From Nostoc sp. PCC 7120 = FACHB-418 (lineage in GTDB: Bacteria; Cyanobacteriota; Cyanobacteriia; Cyanobacteriales; Nostocaceae): a stretch of DNA of 32,000 nt. The notes beneath the pieces were generated by a model. That model searched no databases. It was not told the DNA's origin and saw only the letters and a program-made list of their open reading frames with translations. The position numbers and the translations under genes are program-made. How positions within the stretch are numbered: position 1 is the first letter of the stretch; each line of letters opens with the position of its first letter. Below are positions 1,851-18,595 of this stretch, one piece after another. The DNA lies in NCBI RefSeq assembly GCF_000009705.1, contig NC_003272.1, forward strand, positions 1,380,001 to 1,412,000. Reading direction: 5' to 3'.

Positions 1851-4457
1851 CTAAAGCCAATTACCTACCAATACAAATGCTGACCAATAAAAAGGATGTT
1901 GGAAATCAGCGTTTTGCAAAAAAGTTAGTTGAGTTTGTCGTAATGCTTCTGCTTTGCTAATACCCGGCTGTCTGAGGTGTTTATAAAATTCCACCATAAA
2001 TTTAGCAGTAGACTCATCTTTTACTGACCAGAGAGTAGCTAGAGTGCTGCGCGCACCAGAACGTACTGCTACCCCAGCCAAGCCTAATATAGCTCGATTG
2101 TCTCCTTTTGCTGTTTGACAGGCACTGAGAACCATTAATTCTACTGGTGTAGATTGTGATTCGTTTCTGGCTTGCAGAAATTCACTCAATTTTTTCACAT
2201 TAATCTTTTCATTCCAACTAAGAATAAAAGTGTCATCAGACTGGCTACTAAACTGACCATGAGTAGCTAGATGTAACACCGAAAACGGTGTTGATTCTAT
2301 GGCTTGTTTGAGGTTGGTGTCGGTAAAATTTTCATTTAAAAGTAGTTTTGAAGAAACTTCCTCAGAAATTTCTGTTACTTCCGATTTAACTGCTGGTAAA
2401 GCTTTAAAGCCTTGGCGTGATTCACTCAGCGCAGCTGTCATCAATTTGAGATTTTCCCGTTTGAGCGATCGCGCTGGCATCAACTGCATCCCTGGAGATA
2501 TTGCTAAACTGTATTTCTCTAGCAAATACTGTTTGCCATCATGTAAAACTGCCATTGGGATATTGCGTAAAGAACCATCTAACACAAAAGCTAGTGTCTT
2601 GATTCCACTTTTGCTTAACTCAGATTCAAGAGGACGTATTAGCCAATCATAAAGTTTTCGAGAAACATTTAGCCTTTCCTCATTTGAGAAAATTGGGTTG
2701 AGAGATTGGCGTGTCTGTTTAATTATGTCTTCTATTTCTCTTGAAGATAGGACTGTTTTATAACTAGATAGGGGTTTGCCAGGAATAGATAGAATTACTT
2801 CTAAGCGATCGCCTAAAATAATCGGATAGATCACTGCTGCTTGTTTGTCGATTTGATCAATTTGCTCTGGTTTAGCGTTTAAACAAGCTTCCCGAAAGAA
2901 ATTATCTAACTCTGCTAATTGCAACGCTTCGATTGTCTCTCGTGCTAACTTTAAGTTTCTTTGACTAGGTTGGGGCGATTCTAGTAATATATCCACTAAC
3001 TCCCGATAAATTGGCTCCACACTCTCTTGAAAAGAAAACTGAACATTACGATTAATGGCTACTAAGTCACTACGCAGAGACTTGAGGGTTTTAACAGCAC
3101 TATCATAAGCTGCGATCGCACCCTGATTGTCACCTTGTTTTTTTAGAATACGCCCAACTTGCCAAGCCGCTTGATAACTAATATCACCAGCGTTAATCTC
3201 TTGAGTAATTTGTAGTGCTTTTTGGCTCAGTTTTAAAGCGTCAGCTAACTGCCGCTTCTCAAAATACAATTTTCCTAACTCATTTAAAGCATAACCTTGA
3301 GAGCGCAAATCACCCAGCATTTGAGCCTGCCGTAATGCACGGGCTAAAATTTGTGCTGATTCTTGATATGATACGGACTCATTGCCATCTAGCTTTGACA
3401 ATTTAGTAAAATTGTTGACAAAATTAATTGCTGCATAAACAGACAACCGACTTGGCGGTAGTTTCTCTAATTGCCACTTAATCTCTGATAACAAGGCCTC
3501 AGATGGTTTGTTTTTTCTAGTTTCTAAATAGAGACTAAGTTGATTCAACTGTGCATCTACTCGCAATTGAGAATTAGTTGTCTGAGCTACAACTTGTTGA
3601 TAATAATCAAAAGCTACCTCTATTTGTTGTAAATCTCTAGCCGTATTTCCCAGATTAAACAGAATATTGCTAATGTCTGTAGCGGAATTTAAGCCTTTAC
3701 TAATCTTTAAGCTCTGCTGTAAAATTTCTTGAGATTGTTGTATGTCTCCTACTAATTGAAAAGCAATTCCTAAGCTTTGTAATGCTTTTGCTTTAATAAT
3801 AGAATCTGGCTGATTTTGTAACTTTTGATGCACATCAACCAATAACTGCTGCCCTCTGCGATATAATCCTAAAGCTCGCATTGCTTGGGATTGGTTAATT
3901 TGACTACCTAGCTTTCCCACTTCATCACCAGCCACTGCATATGCACTTTCCGCATCTTGCCAAGCTGTTAAAGCTGCTTGTGCTTGTCCTGTTGAGAGTT
4001 TGAGATTACCTAGAGTATTCAGAGCTACTGCTAAGATGGCAGAGTTTCCTTGTTTCCGGACGTTGAGAGGTTTTAATATATTTAAGCTATTAATAATAGT
4101 AACTTCTGCGTTTTGCCAATCGCCTAAGTTTTGATGAGCCAAGGACAGGTAACTTAAACTCCAAGCTTCATTAATACTATCACCTTGGTTTTTAAAACCA
4201 ATATATGCAGCTTCCCAAAATTTCACAGCTTCAGTAAAGCGTCCAGACTCAAATAACTTCCTACCCTGATGCAGCTGATATTTGGGATTTGAAGAGTCAA
4301 TAATGGAGTATTGCCGTAAACTTGAATCTGCTTGCAAATTTAATTGTGATATCTGGCCTAGCTCCTGATTGGTCTGTGCCAATACTGCAAGATTTGTTGT
4401 TATTAAAAAGAAGGTTAGCCCTCCCAAAGAGACAGCATATTTAGTGAAATTCAGCAT
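1851..4457 (-). CDS. Sec-exported TPR-repeat CHAT-domain (caspase-like) protease
   Basis: 868-aa ORF. It has an N-terminal signal peptide (MLNFTKYAVSLGGLTFFLITTNLAVLAQ/T). About 500 aa of TPR-like helical repeats follow (e.g. AWSLSYLSLAHQNLGDWQNA, ALNELGKLYFEKRQLADALKLSQKAL). The C-terminal CHAT fold shows His and Cys dyad contexts VLHLATHGQF and LMVLSACQTAKG. Confidence 0.85.
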   Translation of the reverse strand: MLNFTKYAVSLGGLTFFLITTNLAVLAQTNQELGQISQLNLQADSSLRQYSIIDSSNPKYQLHQGRKLFESGRFTEAVKFWEAAYIGFKNQGDSINEAWSLSYLSLAHQNLGDWQNAEVTIINSLNILKPLNVRKQGNSAILAVALNTLGNLKLSTGQAQAALTAWQDAESAYAVAGDEVGKLGSQINQSQAMRALGLYRRGQQLLVDVHQKLQNQPDSIIKAKALQSLGIAFQLVGDIQQSQEILQQSLKISKGLNSATDISNILFNLGNTARDLQQIEVAFDYYQQVVAQTTNSQLRVDAQLNQLSLYLETRKNKPSEALLSEIKWQLEKLPPSRLSVYAAINFVNNFTKLSKLDGNESVSYQESAQILARALRQAQMLGDLRSQGYALNELGKLYFEKRQLADALKLSQKALQITQEINAGDISYQAAWQVGRILKKQGDNQGAIAAYDSAVKTLKSLRSDLVAINRNVQFSFQESVEPIYRELVDILLESPQPSQRNLKLARETIEALQLAELDNFFREACLNAKPEQIDQIDKQAAVIYPIILGDRLEVILSIPGKPLSSYKTVLSSREIEDIIKQTRQSLNPIFSNEERLNVSRKLYDWLIRPLESELSKSGIKTLAFVLDGSLRNIPMAVLHDGKQYLLEKYSLAISPGMQLMPARSLKRENLKLMTAALSESRQGFKALPAVKSEVTEISEEVSSKLLLNENFTDTNLKQAIESTPFSVLHLATHGQFSSQSDDTFILSWNEKINVKKLSEFLQARNESQSTPVELMVLSACQTAKGDNRAILGLAGVAVRSGARSTLATLWSVKDESTAKFMVEFYKHLRQPGISKAEALRQTQLTFLQNADFQHPFYWSAFVLVGNWL

Positions 4458-4525
4458 ATACTAATTTTTTATATAAATTTGACATCTACTAGTAACCTCG
4501 CCTGATTAGAAAAATTTTTAGTAAG

Positions 4526-5848
4526 TCACCTAACTGGAATTTCCATTAAAAATTCTGTGCCTTCACCTAATACAGAAAAACATTTTAATCTGCCATTGTG
4601 TTTCTCTTCAATAATTTGGCGGCTAATAGATAAACCAAAATTAGTACCTTTACCACTTGGTTTGGTGGTGAAAAACTGTTCAAATATCTGTTTTTGAGTT
4701 TCTACTGACATACCCAAACCATTATCTTTAAATGTAACTATTAGTAATTCTTCTTCTTGCTTCCATACAGTTTTGATGATAATTTTACGATTTTTATTGT
4801 CTTGAATATCTGCTACTTTGTGACATAACTCATCAATAGCATCAATAGCATTAGCAATCATATTCATGAAAACTTGGTTTATCTGCTCAGGATAACACTC
4901 GATTAGTGGTAAATTGCCATATTCTTTAATTACTTCTATGTCTGGACGTAGTTTATTACCTCTTAAGCGATGGGATAAAATTATTAAAGTACTATTGATA
5001 CCTTCATGGATATCAAAAAATGCTTTTTTAGATATATCTGAACCATAAAAATTGCGTAAACTATCACTAATATTATTAATTCTTTCTAATTCTGTATCGA
5101 TTGAAGTCATAACTTTTGGTATATCTATTAATATTTCATCTAGTTCTATTAGATTAGCATTTTTAGTAATATTTATAACTGGATGTGGGCAATGTTGATG
5201 ATAAAGCTGTAAATGCTGAGTTAAAGCATTTATATAATTACGAAGGAAGCCTAAATTACCCATCAAGGAGTTTAGGGGATTATTAATTTCGTGAGCGACT
5301 CCAGCAACTAATGCTCCCAGAGTGGATAGTTTTTCACTTTGGACTAACTGTAATTGAGATTGCTGGAGTTTATCCAAAGTTAGAGAGAGTGTTTGTGTCC
5401 GTTCTTCTACTAACTTATCAAGTTCTTGGTTTTTTATTTCTAGTTCTTTGGTTAAGAAGCTCAATTTTAAATGCACTTGGATTCTTACTAAAACTTCATC
5501 CAAATTAAAAGGTTTAGTGATATAGTCTACCCCACCTGTGACAAGAGCTAACACCTTATCAAATTGATCTGTAAGAGCCGTCAGAAAAATGACTGGGATA
5601 TCTTTAGTAGACGTTTTACTCTTGAGTTCTGCACAGGTTTGAAATCCATCCATTTCTGGCATCATCACATCTAACAAAATTATATCTGGTTGAGCATATT
5701 CAGCTTCTTCAATAGCACTTTCACCATCAGTTGCTATTAAAATTTCCCATCCTAAAGAAGAAATAGCATCTGATAAAACTTTTAAATTTGTTGGATTATC
5801 ATCCACAATTAATACTGTTGCTTTTTCAAAGCTATTAAAAATCTTCAT
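4526..5848 (-). CDS. Receiver-domain histidine kinase (REC-coiled coil-HisKA-HATPase)
   Basis: 440-aa ORF. The receiver shows [11 protein letters not shown], phospho-Asp context [16 protein letters not shown] and ITKPF. The H-box is [17 protein letters not shown]-binding motifs are [18 protein letters not shown] and [12 protein letters not shown]. Its ATG overlaps the upstream stop (ATGA at 5845-5848). Confidence 0.85.
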
Positions 5849-8613
5849 GATACACCAGCTTTTAAATATTTTATTAATGCGCGGATTTGTTTAATTTGAA
5901 AGCTATCGCTTAATTGTCTAACTTGTGTCACAAAGCCGATAAAATCACCATTTAAATCTAATTCTTCTATTTCATCCAATATTATGTGTATTCCTTTGAT
6001 ATTGCCTCTCATAGACAAATCCAATAGCTTATCAAGTTCTGATATTGGTGGTGCAACTATCAATTGATGATTATTATGTTGGGATGGTTGATTTTCAGAA
6101 ATTTTTGTTTGCTTGCTATCTTCTGCATAAATCCAATCGAGTTGTAAATAATCTTGTAAATACTTGAGTAATTTATCAAGTTCTAAAGGTTTTGGTAAAA
6201 ACTCAGTTCCTCCTATTTGCAAACTTTTGTTTTTATCACTTTCAAACACACTAGCAGAAGAAACAAAAATGGGAACTTTGGATATTTGAGGTAAACTTCT
6301 TATGGTTTGGATCATTTCAAAGCCATCTATAACTGGCATGGCTAAGTCAGTAATAATCAAATCAGGCTCATTTGTTGCTGCTATATTTAATCCTTCTTGT
6401 CCATTAGCAGCTTCAAGGCATTCAAAACCAATTGGTCGCAGGAAATTACAAATTATGGCACGATTTTCCCATTTGTCATCTACAATTAGAACTTTTGGCT
6501 GTTTGTCTTGAATACCGATAATTTTTTTCTTCTGTAGTACACTAGATGTTTGTAACCAGTGACTGATAATATTTAAATTTAAATCTAGCCAGAATTTACT
6601 ACCAGTTCCCAAAATGCTATCTACTTGGATTTGGCTGCCCATTAATTCAGCAATTCTACAGCTAATAGCTAACCCTAATCCCGTACCTTCTGCTTGTTTA
6701 TTTTTATCTCCTACTTGCTCAAAAGGTAAAAAAATCTTTGTCAATTGTTCAGGAGTCATTCCCACTCCTGTATCTTCCACTTGAAATCTAATTTTGTTGA
6801 AATCGGCTCCAGCTTCTAAGACTTGTATTGTGAAATTGACTCCACCTGTCTCAGTAAACTTAATCGCATTACCAAGTAAATTAATTATTATTTGTCGTAG
6901 CCGTTTTTCATCTGCATTAATTGCTTGAGGGAGATCGGGATCTGGTAGGTAATGAAAAGAGATACCTTTTTGTAAAGCACGGATACGACACATTTCTACT
7001 ACTCCCGTAAGGAAGTAAGAAAAATCAAAATCCGTATTGTGTAATTCCAGTTTTCCCGCCTCGATTTTGGACAAGTCTAAAATATCGTTGATGAGAATGA
7101 GGAGGTGAGAACCACACTGATGAATAATATTAATGCCCTCTAATGCTGCGGGTGCTATGTTTTCAGAGCGTTCTAGGATTTGTGCGTATCCTAAAATCCC
7201 ATTGAGAGGTGTCCGCAACTCATGACTCATGCTTGCTAAAAATTCACTTTTAGCTTGGTTGGCGACATCAGCAGCAATTTTGGCGGTTTCTAACTCTTGG
7301 GTACGATCGCGCACTTTTTCTTCTAAGGTGCGAGAATAATCTTGGAGTTGCTGGTTAGCTTTTTCTAATTGTGATTGTTTATACAGATTAGTAGTGACAA
7401 TTGTAGACAGAAAAGTTGTTAACAGTGGTGACATTACAGGAATCCACCAACCAATCATAAATGCAGCATAGCTACTGCCGAAGATTATACTTATACTCAA
7501 TAAAATCACCAGAATCGGCCATCCTGGTAAAGACTGTTTGCGCTGAGAGTTGACTTGTAACCCATGCCAGGTCACACCACTACTGACAAAAGACCAACAA
7601 AATACCAATAGCCACTCTGCTGGCTCAGGCCAAACTCGCAACAATGGCCTACCATCAAGAGCAGCACTTAAAATTTGGCTGACTAAATTGGCATGAACTA
7701 CTACCCCAGCCATGCGTCTTTCTTCATCCTGCACATTGCGGCTGTAACCAACGTTCACAAAATCATTAATACTCTTAGCTGTAGTTCCAATCAAAACAAT
7801 GCGATCGCGTATTAATTCTGATGATATAGAATCACTAAGGATATCCCGCATTTTCACCGTGTCAAAATTATCTTGAAAACCACGGTAATTTAACAGAATT
7901 TGGTATCCTCCAACATCTGTACCTCGATAACTAAATTCTTCACCAGTCAAAGGTGTAAATATTGCTTTCCCTAGCCGCAAAGAAGTGCCAGTTGGATCTA
8001 GTTCCTCTAAAGCAATACCTTTACTTTGAAGATACATCAGACTTAAGTGAGGTGCTAATCCTAAAAAAATTTTCTCCTTACTATCACCAGCAGATAATAA
8101 CCCACGCCTAACTTTACCATCTGTGTCCACGACTAAATCAGCTAGTGCAATTTGACCTAGTTCAGATAAGGTAGGTGATGGAGCAACTTGATCCCCTACT
8201 AATTTTTTGATTCCAATTAAATTAGGCGTAGATTTAATCACTCCCAGAAATTCTTGATGACCTGGTTCTACTGGCAAATCTCGATAGATATCCAAGCCTA
8301 TAGCTGCTGGTCTTTGTGCCTTTAGTTTGATGATCAGCTTGGCTAAAATAAGGTCAGGAATAGGCCATTTGCCAATTTGAGTGATGTCTTGTTCATCAAT
8401 AGTAACGATTAAAATCCGTTTGTCTATTGATTCATTAGGACGTAGAGCATAATATTGCTCCATCGTGTTCCATTCCAGTAGTTGAAATAACCCCGCCATT
8501 CCTCCAGTCATGACGCATATTGCCACGACTGGAGCTGTCATGAATATACTGCGCCAATCTTGGAAACATACCTTGTGTATATAGCCAATAATTGTTTTTA
8601 CAGATGACCTCAT
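5845..8613 (-). CDS. CHASE2-domain hybrid sensor histidine kinase (CHASE2-TM-HisKA-HATPase-REC-helical tail)
   Basis: 922-aa ORF. An N-terminal TM helix is followed by a CHASE2-like periplasmic region ([22 protein letters not shown]...[10 protein letters not shown]...). Hydrophobic helices follow ([49 protein letters not shown]). The H-box is [15 protein letters not shown], with [18 protein letters not shown] and [12 protein letters not shown]. The receiver shows [11 protein letters not shown] and [15 protein letters not shown]. Confidence 0.85.
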
Positions 8614-8680
8614 TAGGTGTTTGTATTCAAGATGAAAAGTTGTGTAATATGAGAAGCATAAATAGTTATTTTTAGAGCAG

Positions 8681-8709
8681 AAGCATGAGTGAAAATTATT
8701 CTCATGCTT
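8681..8709. other. 9-bp stem hairpin in the DUF928/CHASE2 intergenic spacer
   Basis: AAGCATGAG (8681-8689) is the exact reverse complement of CTCATGCTT (8701-8709), with an 11-nt loop. A T-rich run follows only on the plus strand, which is antisense to the operon. Confidence 0.3.
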
Positions 8710-8744
8710 TACTATTTTCTTGCTCTTATGTTGTCTAGTTTTGC

Positions 8745-9464
8745 TTAATTGGTAAGAGGTACTTCAGCGAGCGCACTCAAATCAACAGACCTTAATAGTT
8801 CTTGCCAAGAAGTAGTTATAGTTGGATTATTTGGTTGTGTTCTCTTTAATTCGGCCAGAGTTGCCAGCGAATCATACCAGATGCCCATATTAGCTAACTT
8901 AGATGCTAATTGCACAGTAGGTTGATTATTGAAATTGCGATGAGATTCAACTCGACGAATCCATCCACTTACCCAAGGACTATCCGGCTCTAATTCTTCA
9001 GTACAAATCATCACTAAAGACCATTGATAATTCTGACCTATTTTGAGTGCTGACACTGAACTAGGAAGCTTAATTTCTATCACCCCAGGTTTCTTAGACA
9101 GGTGTAAGATTCTCTGGTAAGATTGCTTTCCTCGTTCATCTTGCAGAGCAAAAAGTGCTGTTTTAGCATTCGTTTGCGGAACATAAACAAATATTGTCGG
9201 ACGCTCCGCTACTGTCAAACCGATATTAGTTTTTGGTAATAGTGGTGTAACTGAGGCTTGAATAGTTGCGCTCATATCAGCACCGCAAGTAGAAGCATCA
9301 CGAGATGCTCCTCCAATTGATTTTTTTGGAGCCTGTGCTTTAGGTGGTCTGAAAGTTACCTGACCCATACTGGGTGTAATGCCAATGGGAATCGAGGACA
9401 AAGAAATTAACCACAAAATTACCAATAACTTGCGTGGGAAAAGATATTTATTTTCTCTTGCCAT
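8745..9464 (-). CDS. DUF928-family secreted protein
   Basis: 239-aa ORF. The N-terminus is hydrophobic and signal-like ([23 protein letters not shown]). The family-typical layout as I recall it is present: F-x-PP...AP....GGxSR....C ([24 protein letters not shown]), then [32 protein letters not shown]...VSGWIRRVE, and the C-terminal [15 protein letters not shown]. Confidence 0.8.
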
Positions 9465-10041
9465 AAATTTTGAAGACTGTCTAAAAGTAATTTAGTGGGG
9501 ATACCTTATTTCTAAGGATTATATTACTTACTATTATTGAATGTTATTATTGATCATATTGCATCAGTATAATTACTATTGCCATCTTTTTACTAATAAG
9601 TAAAAAGTTAATCATAAATTTCTAGAGATTCTAATATGGAAATTTCATGAAAACTTATTTGTTTATATAAAATAAATTCATGAAGTCAAATAATGATTTG
9701 AAGTAAAGCTTGAGTAATTTTTGATTAAAAAAGCTGACTTTCTGGTTCTTATAGACATTTTTACTTTCATGATAATGAATATATGCAATTTACAATACTT
9801 ACTTGAAAATACTTAAAATTAATAGATAAAAATTTTAAGTATAGGTCTTATCTTTTATAAGAAATGAATTAAACATACATTACTAATAGTTAACTTTAAA
9901 AAAACAACACACTCAAAAAGATTGATTATAGACTTCTATATAAAAAAAATTTTTGTTTTTACAAATGTTTCATATCGGAACATCACAATATTTTCTATAT
10001 TGATTGGCAGTTGATATATTTATTACTGATAAATTACTGTC

Positions 10042-11310
10042 ATGAACTGCAAGACGTATAAAAAAATACATATAACTCCATCTCATCAAACCACCCAAAT
10101 TACTCTGCATACGGCAAAACCACTCTTAGCTTTAGCCACATTGATAGGATCTGCTATTCCTGCTCAAGCCATCACATTTAACTTTACCTATCAGCCAGGA
10201 ATCACACAGGAACAGATTGCAGCAGTTGAGTTAGCAGGAAGTATTTGGTCTGCTTACTTACAAGATATAGATGTTGTGGTCAACGTCCATGTCGAGATGA
10301 CCGAAGGCGTTTTAGCTGAGGGTAAATTGGGCGGTGCAACCCCAGCGATTAAAAAGATCAACTATGACAAGTTCAAAGAAGGTTTGGGTGCAGATGGTAC
10401 AGCTAATATCCATCAGTTGCCAACTTCTACCCACAGCAGTGATAAATATAGAACTAGACTAACAGGCGGCATCATCAATAGTAGTAACTATGAACTTCTG
10501 ACAACTACAGCCAATAATAAAGCCCTCGGTAATGACTTGAGTGGCGATGCTTCTGGATTAGATGGCTATATTCAATTAGAAAAATCAGTTAATTGGAGTT
10601 ACAGGCACGCTGGGGGCAAAGTTGGACACAACCAATATGATTTTGTCAGTGTAGCTATCCACGAAATTGGGCATAGCTTGGGTTTTATTAGTGGTATTGA
10701 TGCTTTGAGTGGTTTAGCTTTACCTACTGCTCTTGATATGTTTCGCTACTCTACCGAGAGTGCCAGCCAAAGAGCAATTGACTACACAGTTGGTGGAACT
10801 AAATACTTCTCAATCAACGGAGGGCAAAATCCGTTTAACTTTACTCAAATAGAAAAAAACGCCCCCAATGTATACCAAGCAATCTTTTCTACTGGCGAAA
10901 ATACCCTCTTGGGAGGTGATGGGGAGCAGGCTAGTCACTGGAAAAGAAATAGCCAACCCTATTTAGGGATTATGTCCTCAACTATCAGCATGGGAGGAAT
11001 TAGAAAAATTTCCAAACTGGATCTCGCTGCCCTCGATTACATTGGTTGGCAGGTTGATTATTCCCCAAAAATTAATTTGCCTGCCTTATCCACGAATGCC
11101 CAAACTAAAGCACAAAAAATTTGGGAGTCACAATTCGATAGTAATACAAATAACGATGCCATCCGCGATCGCTCTTCTGATGTACAGCAAATGATGCAGG
11201 AAAGTGGGATTTATAACTGGGGCTGGAATGGATATTGGCAAACAGCCAATCCTACTCCATCATCACAAGTACCTATTTGTTCTCACACAAAAGAACAGGG
11301 CAATAAATAA
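10042..11310 (+). CDS. Secreted HExxH zinc-metalloprotease-like protein (HExxHxLGF type), paralogue A, without PEP-CTERM
   Basis: 422-aa ORF. The signal-like N-terminus is LLALATLIGSAIPAQA. The conserved N-block is ITFNFTYQPG. The catalytic-type motif is AIHEIGHSLGFISGID (10660-10686). It also has DMFRYS, GGDGEQASHWK and the C-terminal Trp-rich block YNWGWNGYWQ. It is a clear paralogue of 12022..13587. Confidence 0.75.
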   Translation: MNCKTYKKIHITPSHQTTQITLHTAKPLLALATLIGSAIPAQAITFNFTYQPGITQEQIAAVELAGSIWSAYLQDIDVVVNVHVEMTEGVLAEGKLGGATPAIKKINYDKFKEGLGADGTANIHQLPTSTHSSDKYRTRLTGGIINSSNYELLTTTANNKALGNDLSGDASGLDGYIQLEKSVNWSYRHAGGKVGHNQYDFVSVAIHEIGHSLGFISGIDALSGLALPTALDMFRYSTESASQRAIDYTVGGTKYFSINGGQNPFNFTQIEKNAPNVYQAIFSTGENTLLGGDGEQASHWKRNSQPYLGIMSSTISMGGIRKISKLDLAALDYIGWQVDYSPKINLPALSTNAQTKAQKIWESQFDSNTNNDAIRDRSSDVQQMMQESGIYNWGWNGYWQTANPTPSSQVPICSHTKEQGNK

Positions 11311-11457
11311 GCTTGTGCGTTGAACTGACTACCCATTGAGATATATCAGAAAACGGGCTGAAAATACTGTGCTTCCTTAGATATGACAAAGGCTTTTTCA
11401 TTCATTCTTCATCCTGACTCTCAACAGTAAAAATTTAAATCATTAAGGTTTGTCAAT

Positions 11458-11808
11458 ATGTCTTCAAATTGTTTGAAATTACTTCCTTGGTTCGGATGGC
11501 TTACACCCTTAACGTTAGCTGCTTCAATAGTCATAATTAGTAATACTTCAGCCCAAGAATTGCAATTTAATTCCACTTATGAAACAGCGACAACCATAGA
11601 CCAAATGCTCGGCGATGAAATGGCTAGTAGGGATTTGTCAAATTACCTAGCCGATAATGTCACCGTGATTCCTATCAATAACAATGGAAATGGCGATCGC
11701 GGTGAATCGTTAAACCAAACGATCAGTAGCAGTAGTCTTTACGCCTGGGATTGGTGGGATTGGTGGCGTGGGAATGGCTATTGGAATGACAAGGGTTGGG
11801 ATTGCTAG
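11458..11808 (+). CDS. Internally deleted metalloprotease paralogue: signal peptide and N-terminal block fused in frame to the Trp-rich tail, with no catalytic domain (possibly a gene remnant)
   Basis: 116-aa ORF. LQFNSTYETATTIDQMLGDEMASRDLSNYLADNVTV aligns with LQFNFTYAPGTTLDQMLGYEMAGKYWSNYLADDVTV of the downstream gene. NNNGNGDRGESLNQTISSSSLYAWDWW aligns with NNNGYDDRGESLNQMINSSGTYNWGWN. DNA-level similarity is visible by eye. There is no HExxH. Confidence 0.55.
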   Translation: MSSNCLKLLPWFGWLTPLTLAASIVIISNTSAQELQFNSTYETATTIDQMLGDEMASRDLSNYLADNVTVIPINNNGNGDRGESLNQTISSSSLYAWDWWDWWRGNGYWNDKGWDC

Positions 11809-12021
11809 TAGCAATTCTCCGCCAAGAAACTCGCGTAAAAATAAAATACCAGCCAATCTGTATCAACATTAAGTCAAGCAGAGTCCAAAACTTTATCCGC
11901 CAGTCCCCAACTTAAAGATTAGAGGTAGCTCTTGAAGTCAAGAAGTAACCAACAATAACTCTCTTACTTCCTCAGCCTCAAGAGCCTCCTCAGCTTATCT
12001 GTTTATCTTGAGCCTAATTCC

Positions 12022-13587
12022 ATGAATAAAAATATCAATTACAGGCAAAATAAATCTCTTGGCTTAATCAAGCTAATTACACCTCTAACATTGGCTGGTT
12101 CTATGGTTATGGTGGGTAGTATATCAGCCCAAGCATTGCAATTTAATTTCACCTATGCACCAGGGACAACCCTAGACCAAATGCTCGGTTATGAGATGGC
12201 GGGTAAATATTGGTCAAATTATTTAGCCGATGATGTCACGGTCAATATCTTTATTGAGCCGACAAATAAGTTACCTACTAATGTCATTGGTGGGGCAATA
12301 CCAGGGGTGACTTCGCAAAACTTTAGCACTGTTTATCAAAAGCTGCAAACAGATATCACCTCAACTAGCGATCACATAGCTTTAAATAGTTTATATAACC
12401 AATGTCAGACCAGCCTTACCTTTAGCAATGGATGGTTTCAGAATCAATGCACAGGATATAAATCTTTAACGAATACCTATAAAAATGGTCTAACTAACTT
12501 AGATATTCACTCCGATGTCAAAAAGATCAATCTCACTCGTGCTAATGCCAAAGCTTTAGGAATGATTAGTGCTAATGACCCTGGTTATGATGGTTATATT
12601 CTCGTGAGTAACTTAAGCAATATTGCTAGGCCTCTGTCATGGAATTATTTTTCTGCCACCAATACCAGTAGTACTATTCCTAACGCCACTCTAGACTTTT
12701 TCACTGTGGCGGTACATGAACTGACTCACACCCTCGGCTTTATCAGTGGTATAGACTTACCTGAATACCAAGATTTATTGACAAAAAAAACATGGTTAAC
12801 CAGTGATGATATGTCTAAATATGGCTACCTGATGGATATGTTTCGTTTATCTGAGAATAGCCGCTTTTGGAATAGACCTGATATATCCGTTGGTGTAGAT
12901 ACGATGTTATCTCTTGATGGTGGTATGACCAAGTTAGGTAATATGTCTTCTGGAAGTACCAAATTTGGAGGAGATGGTAATCAAGGTAGTCACTGGAAAA
13001 AAGACGCTACCTATGATGGCATTATGGAGTCTAGTTTGGGTGCAGGCGGTACGAGAAAATTTGTGACCAATAATGATCTGACTACTTTAGATATCTTGGG
13101 GTGGAATCTACAGCAGAACAATCAAGACCTACTCAGCACTTTCAATAGTGCTAAATCTGGACTGGCTACTAAGATGGGAGTTACTACCAGTTGGATGGAT
13201 GACAACCCTACTCAAGCAGCTTTACTGCTAACACCACAATATATCGATGCTAATAACAATGGCTACGATGATCGCGGTGAATCCTTGAACCAGATGATCA
13301 ATAGCAGTGGTACTTATAACTGGGGTTGGAATGGTTATTGGTGGGGTTGGAATGGCTATTGGTGGGGTTGGAATGGCTATTGGCAAACTACGGACAATTT
13401 AACCACAGATGGCTTTTGGCAAAATTTCGCTTGGGAAACACTGGATGAGTATGAACATGGCGACCATGACTATTTAAGTGGGTCTTCTCAGTCCCAATCT
13501 GTACCAGAACCCACTACTATCTTTGGATTATTTGGCATAGCCATAATGGGCATTGCTACAAAGCTCAAGCGTCGTTGTGAATATTAG
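12022..13587 (+). CDS. Secreted HExxH zinc-metalloprotease-like protein (HExxHxLGF type), paralogue C, with a C-terminal PEP-CTERM sorting signal
   Basis: 521-aa ORF. The signal-like N-terminus is LTLAGSMVMVGSISAQA. It has LQFNFTYAPG, AVHELTHTLGFISGID (12714-12740), DMFRLS, GGDGNQGSHWK and the triple GWNGYWW. The C-terminus VPEPTTIFGLFGIAIMGIATKLKRRCEY (13501-13587) is VPEP plus a hydrophobic helix plus a basic tail, which is a PEP-CTERM architecture. Confidence 0.8.
   Translation: MNKNINYRQNKSLGLIKLITPLTLAGSMVMVGSISAQALQFNFTYAPGTTLDQMLGYEMAGKYWSNYLADDVTVNIFIEPTNKLPTNVIGGAIPGVTSQNFSTVYQKLQTDITSTSDHIALNSLYNQCQTSLTFSNGWFQNQCTGYKSLTNTYKNGLTNLDIHSDVKKINLTRANAKALGMISANDPGYDGYILVSNLSNIARPLSWNYFSATNTSSTIPNATLDFFTVAVHELTHTLGFISGIDLPEYQDLLTKKTWLTSDDMSKYGYLMDMFRLSENSRFWNRPDISVGVDTMLSLDGGMTKLGNMSSGSTKFGGDGNQGSHWKKDATYDGIMESSLGAGGTRKFVTNNDLTTLDILGWNLQQNNQDLLSTFNSAKSGLATKMGVTTSWMDDNPTQAALLLTPQYIDANNNGYDDRGESLNQMINSSGTYNWGWNGYWWGWNGYWWGWNGYWQTTDNLTTDGFWQNFAWETLDEYEHGDHDYLSGSSQSQSVPEPTTIFGLFGIAIMGIATKLKRRCEY
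13321..13383 (+). repeat. 3 x 21-bp perfect-phase tandem repeat encoding (W)GWNGYW
   Basis: The units are TGGGGTTGGAATGGTTATTGG (13321-13341), TGGGGTTGGAATGGCTATTGG (13342-13362) and TGGGGTTGGAATGGCTATTGG (13363-13383). Copies 2 and 3 are identical and copy 1 differs by one T/C. Confidence 0.95.
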
Positions 13588-13789
13588 CAAAGTGGAAGAG
13601 TTCTATTGTTAGTTTAGTTAGTTTTTGGGGAAATATACTTTAGTTAGCAAGAGAAGAGAGTATCCCATCCACAGACATAATCTGTGTTGATGTGAATCAA
13701 TCTAATTTGTCCCACTTGCTTACAGTTCAAGTTATGTTTGCAAGGGGATTTTGCATTAGACAAGCTGGCAAAATTTATATAAAAATATA

Positions 13790-16342
13790 ATGGTGATTTT
13801 ACAACAAACAAAAATATTATTTTTTTTTACCTTTTGTCTATTTCTAGAAACACCTTTAAAGGCATTAGCACAGACTCAACTTAATCCTGATAACACATTG
13901 CCCACTAATGTGAATAATATTGGTGGTGGTGTGTACGATATTACTGGCGGTGCTAGACCAAATAATGGTGCTAATCTTTTCCACAGTTTCCAAGATTTTG
14001 CGATTCGATCAGGTGATACTGCCAGGTTTATTTATGATACAGGGATTAACAATATCATCACACGGGTTACGGGAGGGTCGCCTTCCCAAATTAACGGAAC
14101 TATTCAAACACTTCTCAATGGCACTAACAATATAGGCAATGCCAATTTATTTCTGATCAATCCTTATGGAATCATCTTTGGTGCTAATGCCAAATTAGAT
14201 ATAGGTGGCTCATTTATTGGTACTACAGCAGATAGCATCAAATTCACTGATGGGACAGAATTTAGTGCTACTAACCCCACCGTTAACCCAATTCTTACTG
14301 TTAGTGTACCTCTCGGCTTGCAATTTGGTTCTCATCCCACCAGCACCATTCAAGTACAAGGTTCAGGCAACAATTTAAGGCTCAACCCCGATTTTTCTAT
14401 TGATAGCAGGAACCGTCCACCAGGATTGAGCTATAAAACCCCAAATGGTCAGACTTTAGCACTAATTGCAGGCAAGGTAGAACTAGATGGAGGAAATATT
14501 ACTGTACCCCAGGGAAGAGTTGAATTATGGTCTGTGAATCAAGGTGAAGTTACAATTACCAATCCTAGTGGACAGCTACAACTACAACCCACACCAGGAA
14601 TTAGTTATGGTAATGTTAACCTTCTGAATGCTGCCTCTGTAGATACTAGTGGGAATAGTGGCGGTATTATCCAGGCACGAGGGCAAAATGTGACTCTCGA
14701 AAACGGCTCAGTGATAGTTACAGATACCATCGGTAATGGTTCTGGAGGAATATTGAATATCTCTGCATCTGAGGCGTTGACTATTAAAGGCTTTGTCCTA
14801 AATCCTAATAACCAGGTATCTAGCAGCATACTAGCTGATGTTGGCTCAGGTGCAAGTGGAGAGGGAGGTAAAATCAGCATTAGCACGAAAACCTTACAAG
14901 TGAGCAATGGGGGTCAAATTTCGAGCGGTACTTTTGGGACTGGAAACGCTGGAGAATTGAATGTTACAGCTCAGGATGTGCAGGTAAGTGGTATTTCTCC
15001 CTTCGGTCCGAGTGGTTTATTTGCTCCTGTTGCTCCTGGTGCAAGAGGAAACGGGGGTAGCTTAGGAGTTGAAACTAAGAAATTACAAGTTACTGATGGC
15101 GGACAGATATTCACCACTACCTATGGGTTTGGCCAAGCTGGTGATTTGAAAATCCTTGCTGAAGATGTGGAAGTTATTGGTGGGACACAATTTGGCCCTA
15201 GTATTATTGCCGCTACAACCATAAAACTATCAGCAATTCCAGAGCCAATAGCCACTTTTTTAGGTGCTGGTTTTGGTACAGGCGGTAATTTAATGATTGA
15301 AACCAATAACTTACGAGTTGCTGATGGGGGTCAGATTGCTGTTAGTACATCTGGGAATGGCTCGGCTGGTAACATGACGATTACTGCTAACTCGGTAGAA
15401 TTGACAGGTACTAATCAACTTGGTCGTAGTGGGTTATTCGCTAACGCTATTGTTGGTACTGGTCAAGGTGGCGATGTCAATGTGAGTGCTAATCGCTTAG
15501 TGGTTCGTGATGGTGCAACTATCAATGTCAGTAATTTACTCAGTCGAGACCCACAAAATCTGCTGGGTTTAGCTGGTCAAGGGGCGGCTGGAGATATCAC
15601 ACTTGATTCTGCTGATATTTTACTAGCAAATCAAGGGATAATTACTGCTGATACTAATGCCGGAGATAAAGGCAATATTACGATTCAATCGGATACTTTG
15701 CAAATGCTGCGCGGTAGTCAAATTAGCACCAATGCCCGCAATAGTGCAGTTGGGGGAAATATTAACATCACTACGAATACTTTAGTGGCTTACGAGAATA
15801 GTGATATTACCGCTAATGCTCAACAAGGTTTTGGGGGTAGGGTGGTTGTCAATGCCAAAGGAATTTTTGGGATTCAATTTCGTCCCCAACCGACTCCATA
15901 CAGTGATCTGACGGCTTCTTCTGATTTGGGTGCGGAGTTTCATGGTACCGTAGAATCGAATACGCTAGATGTTGATCCTACTAGCGGATTAGTGAAGCTA
16001 CCAACTAATTTTAGCGATCGCTCACAGCAGATAGCCAGTGGTTGTAGTACAACGCAACAGAATCGTTTTGTTGTTAGCAATCGTGGCGGATTACCTGCCA
16101 ATCCTACTGATACCGTCAGAGGTGAGATAGTTTGGTATGATGTCCGTGATTTATCAAATGAAGTAGCTAACTCAACAGCAAGCAGTAACTATCAAACTGC
16201 TAGTAATCAACAACCAATTGTTGAGGCTCAAGGACTAATTGTTAGTGCAGATGGTACAATACGGCTACTAGCATCCATCCCCACGGTAACGCCTCTTACT
16301 CCGTGGCAAGTATCACCTTCATGTAATGTTAAACCATCTTAA
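13790..16342 (+). CDS. Two-partner-secretion exoprotein (TpsA-like; filamentous-haemagglutinin N-terminal domain plus beta-helix repeats)
   Basis: 850-aa ORF. The signal peptide is FFFTFCLFLETPLKALAQ/T. TPS-domain motifs are YDITGGARPNNGANLFHSFQDF, ITRVTGGSPSQINGTI and ANLFLINPYGIIFG. Gly/Asn/Thr-rich repeats recur as L-x-V-x-DGGQI...G-x-G-x-AG-x-L. The C-terminal block is SGCS...NRFVVSNRGGLPANP...SPSC. Confidence 0.85.
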   Translation: MVILQQTKILFFFTFCLFLETPLKALAQTQLNPDNTLPTNVNNIGGGVYDITGGARPNNGANLFHSFQDFAIRSGDTARFIYDTGINNIITRVTGGSPSQINGTIQTLLNGTNNIGNANLFLINPYGIIFGANAKLDIGGSFIGTTADSIKFTDGTEFSATNPTVNPILTVSVPLGLQFGSHPTSTIQVQGSGNNLRLNPDFSIDSRNRPPGLSYKTPNGQTLALIAGKVELDGGNITVPQGRVELWSVNQGEVTITNPSGQLQLQPTPGISYGNVNLLNAASVDTSGNSGGIIQARGQNVTLENGSVIVTDTIGNGSGGILNISASEALTIKGFVLNPNNQVSSSILADVGSGASGEGGKISISTKTLQVSNGGQISSGTFGTGNAGELNVTAQDVQVSGISPFGPSGLFAPVAPGARGNGGSLGVETKKLQVTDGGQIFTTTYGFGQAGDLKILAEDVEVIGGTQFGPSIIAATTIKLSAIPEPIATFLGAGFGTGGNLMIETNNLRVADGGQIAVSTSGNGSAGNMTITANSVELTGTNQLGRSGLFANAIVGTGQGGDVNVSANRLVVRDGATINVSNLLSRDPQNLLGLAGQGAAGDITLDSADILLANQGIITADTNAGDKGNITIQSDTLQMLRGSQISTNARNSAVGGNINITTNTLVAYENSDITANAQQGFGGRVVVNAKGIFGIQFRPQPTPYSDLTASSDLGAEFHGTVESNTLDVDPTSGLVKLPTNFSDRSQQIASGCSTTQQNRFVVSNRGGLPANPTDTVRGEIVWYDVRDLSNEVANSTASSNYQTASNQQPIVEAQGLIVSADGTIRLLASIPTVTPLTPWQVSPSCNVKPS

Positions 16343-16559
16343 TGGTGAAATTGCTGCAACTAAATTACTTTCTCTCTTAACTAACCTGCGGAATGTGGGC
16401 TACAACAGAATTGGTAGTGCTACAGAGACACCTTGGCGTATTTCTCATTGGCCTTTTGGGAAGATGCACAAATGGGGCAGGTAGGTATGAGACGAGACCA
16501 GCAATAAACTCTACTTTTCCATCATTACATCTTGAGTACTACCCCCCCTCTGGAAAATT

Positions 16560-18374
16560 TTAAAAAGGATTATAAACCAGCGAAAAATATAATCCATTCT
16601 CTTGCCAGGTTCTGGCTTGTGAATCAACGGATACTAAAGGAATACCCCAATCAAGACGGGCGCTAAAGCGATCGCCTTGTGACCAGCGCAAACCCAGACC
16701 AATCGACGCTAGGGTATTAGGGTCTGGAGTCTCCCGATAGTTATTCCAGGCAACACCAAAATCTACAAAAGGGGTGACTTGTAACAGACCATCGGACTGG
16801 GATAATCGCAGAATCGGTATTTGCACCTCAGCTGAAGCAAAAGCGCCATTATCGGTTAGTAGAAAATCTTGCCGATAACCCCGGACACTATCTAAACCAC
16901 CCAAACCAAATTGTTCCAAAGATAATAGCCCTTTGGATGCTATCTGTGTATTAGCTTTGACAATTAATAAGGTTTCTGGAGCCAGAAGACGCGCCCATTG
17001 AGCTTGTCCCTGCCAAGAAAAAAAGCGACTATCGGGAGGCTCGGCATTAACTGTGGCGTTTAATGCACCTATACCCAAATTAAATTGCGATCGCACTGCA
17101 AAAACTTGCCGACTGTTACGAGTAGTCCATTCCTGAAAGAAACGCAACGCAGATATCCTGGTGCGTCCCTGATCATCAGCACCAGGGGAAAGCACACTAG
17201 GCGGTAAACGAGGTTCTTCGTTGAACAGTGAGGAATATATTTCACTTTCTCTCCGTGAGGCTGTCAAACCAATGGCGAATTCTTGGCTAGGAGATTGAGC
17301 TAATGGTTGACGATAGGTGATTTCGTAGTAGCGAGAGGAAGACTGGATATCGAGAGTATTAAAAGGTTCTTCAATCACATTGCTGGATGCAGTACCAAAA
17401 TTAAAGCTGATTGTGCCGTTGCGGGGATTTAATGGCAAGGTGTAACTGGTATCAAAGGTGTTACTACCATCAGTATTACTATAAGCTAAACTGATGTTGT
17501 CACCTAACCCCAGCAAATTAGCTTCATTTAATTGTACTCGGCGGCGAAAACTCCCGACTCCAGGCGATCGCCCATTATCTAAAGCTAACTGAGCATGAAA
17601 AGATTTTGCTTCTGTGATTTGTACCTGTAGTACACTCGTCCCTGGACGAGAACCTGCTGAAAGTTCAGCAGAAAGATTTTGAATCAACGGATTGAGTTGT
17701 AATAATTGTAGCGCTTCTAGTAAACTCTCGCGGTTGAGGGGGGGTTTTGTAGCGATCGCCAACCGACTGCGGACATAATTAGGTTTGAGTCGCCGATTTC
17801 CAGTAATTTGAATGTCTTCTAACCTACCTTCCACCACCTGAATTTTAATGACACCAGATTTAATAGTTTGCGGTGGGATATAAGCACCAGAAGTAATGTA
17901 ACCTTTATTGACGTATAATTCGGTAATTTTAGAACGAGCTTGAAACAGTTCTGCTAATGTAATAGGTCTTTTGGTAAACTCAGTGGTAACCTTGGCTAAC
18001 TCTTCCTGACTAAACACTGTACTGCCAACAACTTCAAACCTTTCTACTGTGATAGTTTGCGGCGCATTTTCCGGTACTTGTTGCTGTGGGTTAATGTCGG
18101 GAGAAGACGGTTGGAGTAGTTCTCCAGGTGGCGGTAATTGCTGTGGCTACTGGGGAGGAGGTAAAGGAGCAGGTGCAGGTGGTTGAATATCTTGAGGCTG
18201 AGGCAGTGCTTGTGTCGAATTACTATTTGGTAGTTGCGTCCGATCAACAGCTTGAGCGTTCACAGGTAGAAAATCTATGCTGTTGAGAGATAATAATATA
18301 CTCAACGGCAACCAAGAAACTGCAAGCTTTGGGTGGCTATACATCATGCTAATAAGTTGTTTATTTGCCAACAA
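16560..18374 (-). pseudogene. ShlB/FhaC/HecB-family TpsB outer-membrane transporter interrupted by one in-frame TAG (18147-18149)
   Basis: Track ORFs 18147..18374 and 16560..18017 are in the same frame ((18146-18017) = 129 = 43 codons). The first is a signal peptide (LAVSWLPLSILLSLNSIDFLPVNAQA) plus a Pro/Gln-rich linker. My translation across the gap has no further stop: ...APLPPPQ*PQQLPPPGELLQPSSPDINPQQQVPENAPQTITVERFEVVGSTVFSQEELAKV. The POTRA-like ITVERFEVVGSTVFS is followed by a beta-barrel ending ...GLYFSLVYNPF. Confidence 0.75.
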
Positions 18375-18518: not shown

Positions 18519-18595
18519 TTGACCAATGACAACTGACAACTGACAACTAACAACTGACAACTGACAACTAACAACTGACAACTAACTATTGACTC
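18519..18595. repeat. STRR-like tandem heptanucleotide array (about 11 units, consensus CTGACAA / CTAACAA)
   Basis: Phased by hand: TTGACCA ATGACAA CTGACAA CTGACAA CTAACAA CTGACAA CTGACAA CTAACAA CTGACAA CTAACTA TTGACTC. The last units overlap the stop and final codons of the oxidoreductase gene. Confidence 0.9.

Follow-up and report, generated by a model that had tools for sequence, protein, structure and literature searches.

A CHAT protease, DUF928 and CHASE2 receptors in a conserved, putative envelope-signalling module of cyanobacteria

The locus in Nostoc sp. PCC 7120

The window analyzed here, a stretch of 32,000 nucleotides from Nostoc sp. PCC 7120 (contig NC_003272.1, positions 1,380,001 to 1,412,000), contains a single copy of a gene module that is conserved among cyanobacteria and probably serves envelope signalling. 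Its core comprises a TPR-CHAT protease, a DUF928 protein and a receptor with a CHASE2 domain, usually accompanied by one or two exoproteins of the two-partner secretion (TPS) type, TpsA. The window holds the genes all1176 to all1188, for which two tags serve as anchors: all1178, the name used in the literature for the CHASE2 kinase BAB73135, and all1188 (BAB73145). The tags all1176, all1177, all1179, alr1180, alr1183 and alr1184 are putative, having been read off consecutive accessions between both anchors. Eight proteins of the window match, over their exact sequence, database entries for PCC 7120 and very close relatives. Domains were called by Pfam and NCBIfam profile searches, and signal-like N-termini were judged from the sequence. 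In window coordinates, the features of the region are the following:

1851-4457, minus strand: all1176 (putative tag; BAB73133), TPR-CHAT protein of 868 amino acids (aa), matching PF12770 at E=3.5e-64 plus TPR
4526-5848, minus strand: all1177 (putative tag), predicted REC-HisKA-HATPase relay kinase of 440 aa (Pfam)
5845-8613, minus strand: all1178, CHASE2 hybrid histidine kinase of 922 aa, matching PF05226 at E=4.8e-62
8745-9464, minus strand: all1179 (putative tag), DUF928 protein of 239 aa, matching PF06051 at E=2.7e-57 (193.9 bits vs a cutoff of 26)
9465-10041: divergent intergenic region of 577 nucleotides (nt), AT-rich (GC 0.30), between the DUF928 operon (minus) and the metalloprotease/TpsA genes (plus)
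10042-11310, plus strand: alr1180 (putative tag), NF038122 metalloprotease of 422 aa with HEIGH (219.7 bits vs a cutoff of 80)
11458-11808, plus strand: metalloprotease remnant of 116 aa, with neither a Pfam/NCBIfam match nor HExxH
12022-13587, plus strand: alr1183 (putative tag), NF038122 metalloprotease with PEP-CTERM, 521 aa, HELTH (234.2 bits vs a cutoff of 80)
13790-16342, plus strand: alr1184 (putative tag), TpsA of 850 aa, with the TPS domain PF05860 at E=7.5e-65 (residues 30-295) and TIGR01901 at 64.5 bits
16560-18374, minus strand: tpsB pseudogene of a ShlB/FhaC-type Omp85 transporter, with POTRA_2 and ShlB found by Pfam on its 485-aa open reading frame (ORF; 16560-18017)

The original prediction, made from the nucleotide sequence and a list of its ORFs, had named the CHAT, CHASE2, DUF928, TPS and ShlB domains, and all of them are recovered by the profiles; likewise, the signal peptides it had proposed for the DUF928 and TPR-CHAT proteins are visible as signal-like N-termini in both sequences. 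The DUF928-CHASE2-REC kinase-CHAT operon looks intact: its intergenic gaps are 131, -4 and 68 nt, the negative value reflecting the 4-nt overlap of the start of all1177 with the stop of all1178. The divergent intergenic region presumably holds the promoters of the divergent units. A scan for consensus promoters and terminators returned sites no more numerous than in shuffled sequence; hence, promoters were not placed and the transcription units are delimited by gene spacing alone.

Conservation and rearrangement of the neighbourhood

We fetched 73 loci anchored on DUF928 from species-representative genomes and labelled their ORFs using phmmer and profile hidden Markov models (HMMs) made from the window proteins. 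Of these loci, 41 are full-flank, extending at least 8 kb on either side of DUF928. Within the full-flank set CHASE2 is present in 38 loci, TPR-CHAT in 35 and a TPS (TpsA) gene in 23, with NF038122 metalloproteases in 11 (13/73 overall) and ShlB/TpsB in 5 (within 10 kb in 6/73 overall). A re-search of the loci with a profile HMM for TpsB yielded zero extra copies, indicating that its rarity is not an artefact of phmmer sensitivity; the CHASE2 profile used alongside matched kinase cores and was dropped. The linkage is tight and directional: the gap between DUF928 and CHASE2 has a median of 71 nt over all 61 loci having CHASE2, and the nearest CHAT shares the DUF928 strand in each of the 53 loci with CHAT. 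Loci without CHAT are mostly short contigs, and four loci (L050, L051, L056 and L077) hold DUF928-CHASE2 with no detectable CHAT or TPS. The four-gene core neighbourhood exceeds chance: by a rough estimate from the same DUF928-anchored loci, where 2 CHAT ORFs beyond one per locus are encountered in 1.2 Mb, a CHAT gene is expected in ~3% of 20-kb stretches, as against the observed 85% for CHAT and 93% for CHASE2.

The DUF928 proteins of these loci fall into 17 clusters at 60% identity, the largest of which holds 33 of the 73 loci. The Nostocales are represented by Nostoc, Calothrix, Tolypothrix, Scytonema, Stigonema, Rivularia and Richelia, the Oscillatoriales by Oscillatoria, Moorena, Microcoleus and Coleofasciculus, and the Pleurocapsales by Xenococcus, Pleurocapsa, Hydrococcus and Hyella. 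Thus, the linkage, which the original prediction had expected in Nostocales genomes and proposed to check across cyanobacteria, extends well beyond that order; it is stronger than expected for DUF928, CHASE2, CHAT and TPS and weaker for the other families, ShlB among them.

Two main gene orders were observed. The first, as in the window, runs DUF928, CHASE2 kinase, REC kinase and CHAT, and the second runs TpsA (in one or two copies), CHAT, DUF928 and CHASE2, with TpsA-to-CHAT gaps of -13 to 214 nt. The flanking genes vary by locus, and the linkage persists through inversions, reorderings and swaps of the output domain; moreover, single genomes may carry paralogous modules with different outputs (e.g. 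L011/L017, L033/L065 and L034/L087). An ABC permease found upstream of DUF928 in Calothrix-type loci was rejected as a further component, as it is absent elsewhere and was judged to reflect lineage synteny.

The same association emerges when the receptor is taken as the starting point. Six close relatives of the All1178 CHASE2 domain were picked for their differing outputs and long contigs, with their context unseen, and all six proved to be encoded in DUF928 modules, five with CHAT and four with TPS. CHASE2 lies directly downstream of DUF928 in five of them and one gene further in the sixth. DUF928 is the partner most tightly linked to the CHASE2 sensor, even though the original prediction had left it without a function or a role in its model. 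That the CHASE2 proteins of this clade almost always come directly after DUF928 and near an exported CHAT, whatever their output, points to specific protein partners. Taken together, these observations leave us highly confident that the core of CHAT protease, DUF928 and CHASE2 is functionally coupled, usually with TpsA. The nine genes had originally been treated as one unit; this does not hold, given the rarity of linked TpsB and its pseudogene state in the window, the accessory status of the metalloproteases and the cytoplasmic nature predicted for All1177 (see below).

Components of the module

All1178 has a transmembrane segment (TM), a periplasmic CHASE2 domain, three further TMs, a HisKA-HATPase-REC unit and a tail of ~98 aa. 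An AlphaFold2 (AF2) model of its residues 21-420 (pLDDT 88, pTM 0.88) shows CHASE2 flanked by N-terminal helices and three long C-terminal helices, and a Foldseek comparison of this CHASE2 model with the PDB recovered no structural neighbour (top match E=0.12). The last 98 residues (5848-6141, minus strand) match no Pfam model even at E<=10. This conserved C-terminal extension occupies the expected position of an HPt domain and displays no obvious phospho-accepting His motif. The REC-kinase gene trails the CHASE2 hybrid kinase in every locus of the hybrid-kinase type whose stored sequence extends there. Its product in the window, All1177, has neither a TM nor a signal sequence and is predicted to be a cytoplasmic relay kinase; accordingly, the earlier claim that all nine products lie outside the cytoplasm fails for this protein. 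The output in PCC 7120 would then be a phosphorelay from All1178 to All1177. Proteomics has detected the All1178 protein, listed with unknown function, and its level in the exoproteome was 452-fold lower when furC was overexpressed (PMC10936207).

The outputs of the DUF928-adjacent CHASE2 proteins are diverse and comprise the hybrid kinase (with its REC-kinase), a PAS-adenylate/guanylate cyclase, GGDEF, SpoIIE/PP2C and an N-terminal AAA_35 NTPase. Two loci (L081 and L089) have tandem CHASE2 receptors, one with GGDEF and the other with a cyclase. In another set (L053, L054, L055, L057, L060 and L062-L066), where the receptor gene and DUF928 are convergent, the CHASE2 domain is C-terminal to the AAA_35 (STAND-like) NTPase, an unusual layout for a CHASE2 protein; separate AAA_35 genes recur nearby. 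That the periplasmic set remains constant while the cytoplasmic outputs vary places DUF928, CHAT and TpsA on the input side of the sensor. CHASE2 was defined in 2003. Recent papers on two cyanobacterial CHASE2 proteins describe the ligand as unknown: Dgc2 (LBDG_02920 of L. boryana), which represses the gliding motility of Leptolyngbya (PMC10581220), and Alr1219, a major diguanylate cyclase of Anabaena with published effects on c-di-GMP homeostasis and cell size (PMC13075795).

The all1176 protein begins with a hydrophobic signal, MLNFTKYAVSLGGLTFFLITTNLAVLAQ, and such an N-terminal segment is present in 43 of 48 full-length CHAT orthologues, indicating that the enzyme is exported. The His-Cys dyad is conserved, with His733 kept in 55/56 and Cys780 in 56/56 orthologues; the protease is thus predicted to be catalytically intact. 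A sequence search of the PDB with all1176 gave only TPR matches, no solved CHAT structure being among them.

The DUF928 protein All1179 consists of a signal peptide, a disordered N-terminal motif (F-x-P-P…P-K…G-G-A-S-R55), Cys60, an Ig-like beta-sandwich (~75-172) containing Cys154, and a 3-helix bundle (184-225). Across the family the motif takes the form F-x-P-P…P-K…G-[GAS]-[AG]-S-R, is located just after the signal peptide and is followed by a Cys 2-9 residues on. This linear motif, rather than any part of the fold, is the most conserved element of DUF928, with G51, G52, S54 and R55 invariant in our alignment (A1). In the AF2 model of All1179 (pLDDT 81) the GG.SR motif is within the low-confidence N-terminal part. 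Across the fetched loci, 75 DUF928 ORFs contain the pattern G[GAS][AG]SR, as against only 7 other ORFs. A fold search with All1179 returned generic Ig-like/beta-sandwich matches alone, which suggest no function; the best PDB matches include carbohydrate-binding modules (e.g. 8wae, TMt 0.70). Two variants, P0093 (L084, 10001-11014) and P0099 (L085, 381-1301), carry 4-5 tandem copies of a 22-residue unit, FTP…AP.QATGGASR, and they are the only ones in which both conserved Cys residues are missing. This joint loss argues both for a disulfide between the two Cys and for a motif unit that is functional by itself. The modules that encode both variants still run DUF928-CHASE2 kinase-REC kinase; in the P0093 locus CHAT is the gene immediately before DUF928, and the P0099 contigs end short of that position. 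A likeness of the motif (GSGSR, GGASR) to the RGSGR of the PatS/HetN morphogens was considered and set aside: PatS acts on cytoplasmic HetR, while DUF928 is an exported protein that is also present in cyanobacteria lacking heterocysts.

The TpsA protein of the window, alr1184, comprises a signal peptide, the TPS domain (30-295), a Gly-rich repeat region that we assume to be a beta-helix, and a two-Cys C-terminal module (~688-850). The latter, encoded at 15851-16339 and spanning the last ~160 residues, has the form QIASGC…NRGGLPANP…PSC, its two Cys lying at approximately 740 (in QIASGC) and 845 (in PSC). Exactly two Cys are found in the last 190 aa of 26/27 complete TpsA orthologues, one of them in Q-I-x-x-G-C and the other at most ~10 residues from the C-terminus, with RGGLPxxP between them, the central GGLP..P positions of which are at least 80-95% conserved. 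No Pfam (E<=10) or NCBIfam model covers this module. A word-indexed search with the TpsA C-terminus gave just 3 matches, the size of the family emerging by an exhaustive HMMER search, which recovered 5,419 representative clusters at E<=1e-3, 3,128 of them also passing E<=1e-10. The module is almost always at the extreme C-terminus of proteins of 600-1500 aa, the TPS domain is N-terminal in 9/9 tested relatives that bear it, and exactly two Cys are present in the tail of 102/104 wider relatives. The module was also noted in P0282-P0430. This large family is presumably cyanobacterial.

The TpsA arm of PCC 7120 shows decay, with a premature stop in tpsB and one metalloprotease copy reduced to a remnant; the strain is perhaps, therefore, not the best one for studying the filament arm. 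The tpsB gene can be read as one 604-codon frame (18374->16560) with an in-frame TAG at 18147-18149, in the Pro-rich linker between signal peptide and POTRA1; the 485-aa ORF accordingly lacks a signal peptide, and the signal-like N-terminus lies in the upstream frame. The same TAG context is seen in L001 and L002, two further assemblies of the PCC 7120 lineage, whereas L006-L009, L024 and L062 have intact orthologues of 584-644 aa that read through the Pro-rich linker. In A. variabilis no tpsB adjoins tpsA. Hence, of the TpsA/TpsB pair originally proposed, the TPS, POTRA_2 and ShlB domains are indeed there and the transporter is broken: as a type Vb system the window has the TpsA signal peptide and TPS domain and, owing to the TAG, no intact cognate TpsB. 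With tpsB a pseudogene, the TpsA arm may be crippled in this strain.

A similar correction applies to the three HExxH paralogues that had been described, two of which are intact (HEIGH and HELTH), with signal-like N-termini and one with PEP-CTERM, while the third is a deletion remnant. BLASTP aligns the 11458-11808 product with the 521-aa protein in two pieces, residues 7-70 with 11-74 and residues 71-92 with 408-429; the alignment skips the middle of the longer protein, so that this is an internal-deletion copy from which the catalytic domain is gone. A 116-aa metalloprotease-related ORF without HExxH is also found at the matching position in a locus from a metagenome-assembled genome of Trichormus (L005). 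The intact alr1180 and alr1183 share 31% identity. PEP-CTERM of alr1183 is detected by both TIGR02595 (19.4 vs 16) and PF07589 (22.5 vs 20.7), and a 21-nt x3 tandem repeat (13321-13383, plus strand) encodes three WGWNGYW near its C-terminus. The remnant holds a degenerate version of this repeat (a 9-nt repeat at 11746-11766), and the copy of alr1183 in a close relative has 517 aa vs 521, so that the repeat number may vary. A sequence search of the PDB with the metalloprotease gave nothing significant. Counting the window, 14 sources have an NF038122 gene, and in 12 of these it precedes TpsA in the same orientation, in most cases carrying PEP-CTERM. This indicates that the metalloproteases travel with TpsA and not with the sensor; they are likely to be accessory surface proteases.

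Several further elements surround these genes. Just downstream of the CHAT gene, 1-1233 (minus strand) encodes the first 411 of the 880 residues of an FHA-GAF-GGDEF-EAL protein, which is cut by the left end of the window; it is probably unrelated to the module, since in A. variabilis it lies elsewhere than beside it. Between all1188 and the tpsB pseudogene is a heptanucleotide tandem repeat, TGACAAC x8 (18527-18583), which is similar to the STRR (short tandemly repeated repetitive) sequences of heterocyst-forming cyanobacteria. The genes of the segment 19746-31821 specify an EamA transporter, two histidine kinases, the first with GAF, a DUF2808 protein, a response regulator of the OmpR type, an MscS channel and a metallophosphoesterase. 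In other genomes, none of them recurs beside the module.

Possible mechanisms and known systems

We tentatively favour a reading, to which we give somewhat less than an even chance, in which the components form a periplasmic proteolytic relay running from TpsA through CHAT and DUF928 to CHASE2; the physical interactions, the cleavage site and the direction of signalling in it are our inferences. TpsA would be displayed at the cell surface with its two-Cys C-terminal module remaining on the periplasmic side, where this module would recruit or regulate the CHAT protease, being engaged by the TPR domain of the latter. CHAT would cut the exposed N-terminal motif of DUF928 after the invariant Ser-Arg, the cleavage state of DUF928 would set the activity of the adjacent CHASE2 receptor, and the receptor would hand the signal to whichever cytoplasmic output is present. 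The TpsA adhesin CdrA, in which a cysteine hook holds the protein in CdrB until the periplasmic protease LapG releases it, offers a precedent that supports surface display with the two-Cys module on the periplasmic side (PMC7616799; PMC4694147). The original scheme of a surface filament, a processing protease and a sensor kinase that reads the product is compatible with all these findings and stays an inference; the kinase in it has to be generalized, as the sensor is often no kinase and ends instead in a cyclase, GGDEF, PP2C or AAA_35.

A more specific version, which we regard as doubtful, holds that DUF928 is the missing protein input of a large CHASE2 clade and acts as a protease-processed pro-ligand. 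A CHAT cut after R55 of All1179 would free a peptide of ~21 residues, and the tandem-repeat variants would release four or five 22-residue peptides in the manner of a pheromone polyprotein; alternatively, the cut might expose a new N-terminus tethered by the disulfide. CHASE2 would then read the freed peptide or the new N-terminus. In yet another variant CHAT would not be a simple protease but a transpeptidase of clan CD, comparable to legumain or the glycosylphosphatidylinositol (GPI) transamidase.

Several considerations weigh against the relay. First, the two-Cys C-terminal module is found in thousands of TpsA proteins and is thus probably common to a large family and not specific to this system. 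Second, TpsA is missing from ~44% of the full-flank loci and TpsB is seldom linked, so that the filament arm may be optional. Third, a preference of CHAT for Arg at P1 is assumed by analogy with its clan-CD relatives. Fourth, the patterns used to fetch the loci came from a narrower, Nostocales-weighted DUF928 alignment, and the sampling is accordingly biased to Nostocales-like sequences. Finally, the gene linkage fits equally well with DUF928 being a ligand-binding co-sensor and with CHAT and TpsA being co-regulated yet separate.

This last alternative, in which the DUF928 beta-sandwich binds a small molecule or glycan on behalf of CHASE2 and the remaining genes are merely co-regulated neighbours concerned with surface remodelling, we consider unlikely, albeit with a real claim to attention. 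DUF928 and CHASE2 do form the tightest pair, the Ig-like model of DUF928 does have carbohydrate-binding modules among its best PDB matches, and the loci that hold this pair with no detectable CHAT or TPS are what it would predict. However, loci without CHAT are mostly short contigs, and wherever CHAT is present it is co-directional with DUF928 and in many cases directly upstream of it. Moreover, the linkage is also seen with non-transcriptional outputs (GGDEF, cyclase and PP2C), for which a shared regulon fails to explain the adjacency, and conservation within DUF928 peaks in a disordered linear motif that ends with Ser-Arg, not in a pocket of the fold.

It is improbable, in our estimation, that the module is a Lap/CdrA-like release switch in which CHAT cuts the periplasmic two-Cys plug of TpsA, e.g. 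near RGGLP, and sheds the filament, with DUF928-CHASE2 controlling or monitoring CHAT. The short TpsA-to-CHAT gaps include overlaps suggestive of translational coupling, and both the conserved C-terminal module and the cysteine hook of CdrA would be in keeping with such a switch. Nevertheless, TpsA is not nearby in 15 of the 33 full-flank loci with both CHASE2 and CHAT, the region lacks a LapG-type (BTLCP) protease as well as a LapD-type receptor, and the output domains on CHASE2 imply outside-in signalling and not inside-out control. Such a switch also leaves the DUF928 motif unexplained.

A role in biological conflict, be it contact-dependent inhibition (CDI), programmed cell death or antiphage defence, with TpsA as the delivery device and CHAT as the effector, appears highly improbable. 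The suspicion arises from the CdiA toxins among the TPS systems, from the action of TPR-CHAT proteases in type III-E CRISPR (Craspase) and from the recurrence of caspase-like and AAA_35/STAND-type domains in bacterial conflict systems, with AAA_35-CHASE2 fusions found here and caspase-CHASE2 fusions reported earlier (PMC8195603). Against this, the TpsA C-terminus is conserved and not polymorphic, has no Pfam toxin match and is not followed by an immunity gene; PADLOC yields only weak domain-level matches; the exported CHAT is out of reach of cytoplasmic targets; and the window has no CRISPR or Cas genes. Least credible of all is adjacency inherited by shared ancestry with zero functional coupling: about half of the loci (33/73) do belong to a single DUF928 cluster, but the linkage across at least 17 clusters and three orders, through inversions and reorderings with differing flanks, together with the several paralogous modules of different output inside single genomes, already contradicts it.

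A DUF928-CHASE2-WD40 cluster of N. punctiforme has been reported and treated as species-specific (PMC5587647). In the open full-text literature, with subscription journals outside its scope, this is the only paper to mention DUF928, and none brings the CHAT domain together with CHASE2 or with filamentous hemagglutinin, so that the module is undescribed there. With it DUF928 gains a first functional context, and the question of the CHASE2 ligand can be put to the test by way of particular partner proteins, a candidate motif for cleavage and the catalytic cysteine of CHAT. The hitherto unmodelled two-Cys C-terminal domain, defined in thousands of TpsA, is a candidate for a new domain definition. 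Envelope signalling by way of a periplasmic protease and an accessory protein, which we put forward as a possibility falling just short of likely, suggests that caspase-fold proteases serve signalling and not cell death in the cyanobacterial periplasm. If this is true, the module would couple the surface filaments of multicellular cyanobacteria to control by second messengers and phosphorelays, and adhesion, aggregation and motility could be affected. Were the pro-ligand version to hold, it would amount to peptide-based envelope or cell-cell signalling, gated by the state of the TpsA filament and feeding kinase, cAMP/cGMP, c-di-GMP or phosphatase outputs.

The module may be compared with several known systems. 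DegS-RseA/RseB resembles the proposed relay in that a periplasmic protease alters a periplasmic or membrane partner and thereby signals envelope status across the inner membrane; however, the families are unrelated, and the cyanobacterial module has a receptor with interchangeable enzymatic domains in place of sigma-factor release. It differs from CDI (CdiA/CdiB/CdiI) in the conservation of the TpsA C-terminus over 27 orthologues and thousands of relatives, and the next gene is a convergent tpsB pseudogene. In Craspase, the TPR-CHAT protease Csx29 is cytoplasmic, RNA-guided and linked to Cas7-11, and cleaves a partner protein encoded next door. The TPR plus CHAT architecture is shared, as would be signalling by site-specific cleavage of the product of a neighbouring gene, which is proposed here. 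In contrast, All1176 has a signal peptide, and no Cas7-11/gRAMP or other cas genes are present in the window or related loci.

In the FhaB/FhaC system of Bordetella a periplasmic C-terminal region is thought to be retained and the exoprotein is processed by dedicated proteases. Common to both is a TPS-domain exoprotein, beta-helical by family expectation, with a TpsB of the Omp85 type, and the NF038122/PEP-CTERM proteases directly upstream of TpsA could fill the role of the surface protease. The cyanobacterial system differs in its mostly unlinked TpsB, a pseudogene in the window, in its short exoprotein (850 aa) and in having a sensor and DUF928 within the module.

A functional parallel exists with the Lap/CdrA system of Pseudomonas, in which LapD and LapG control LapA and LapG cleaves the TpsA adhesin CdrA; with it the module shares a type Vb exoprotein, a Cys-containing C-terminal element, a periplasmic cysteine protease and an inner-membrane receptor in the circuit. 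The two-Cys tail of TpsA is conserved (26/27 and 102/104), and its periplasmic location and disulfide are putative. Nevertheless, the protease here is a clan-CD TPR-CHAT and not BTLCP/LapG; CHASE2 with its cytoplasmic outputs suggests outside-in signalling, whereas LapD binds c-di-GMP and works inside-out; DUF928 has no Lap counterpart; and cleavage is in the present case only predicted. Domains of the BTLCP-family LapG or LapD type are absent from the Pfam and NCBIfam calls on every gene of the region, which makes the resemblance a functional one only. Thus, with their defining components absent, the module belongs to none of the Lap, CDI and Craspase families, while its manner of working may be Lap-like.

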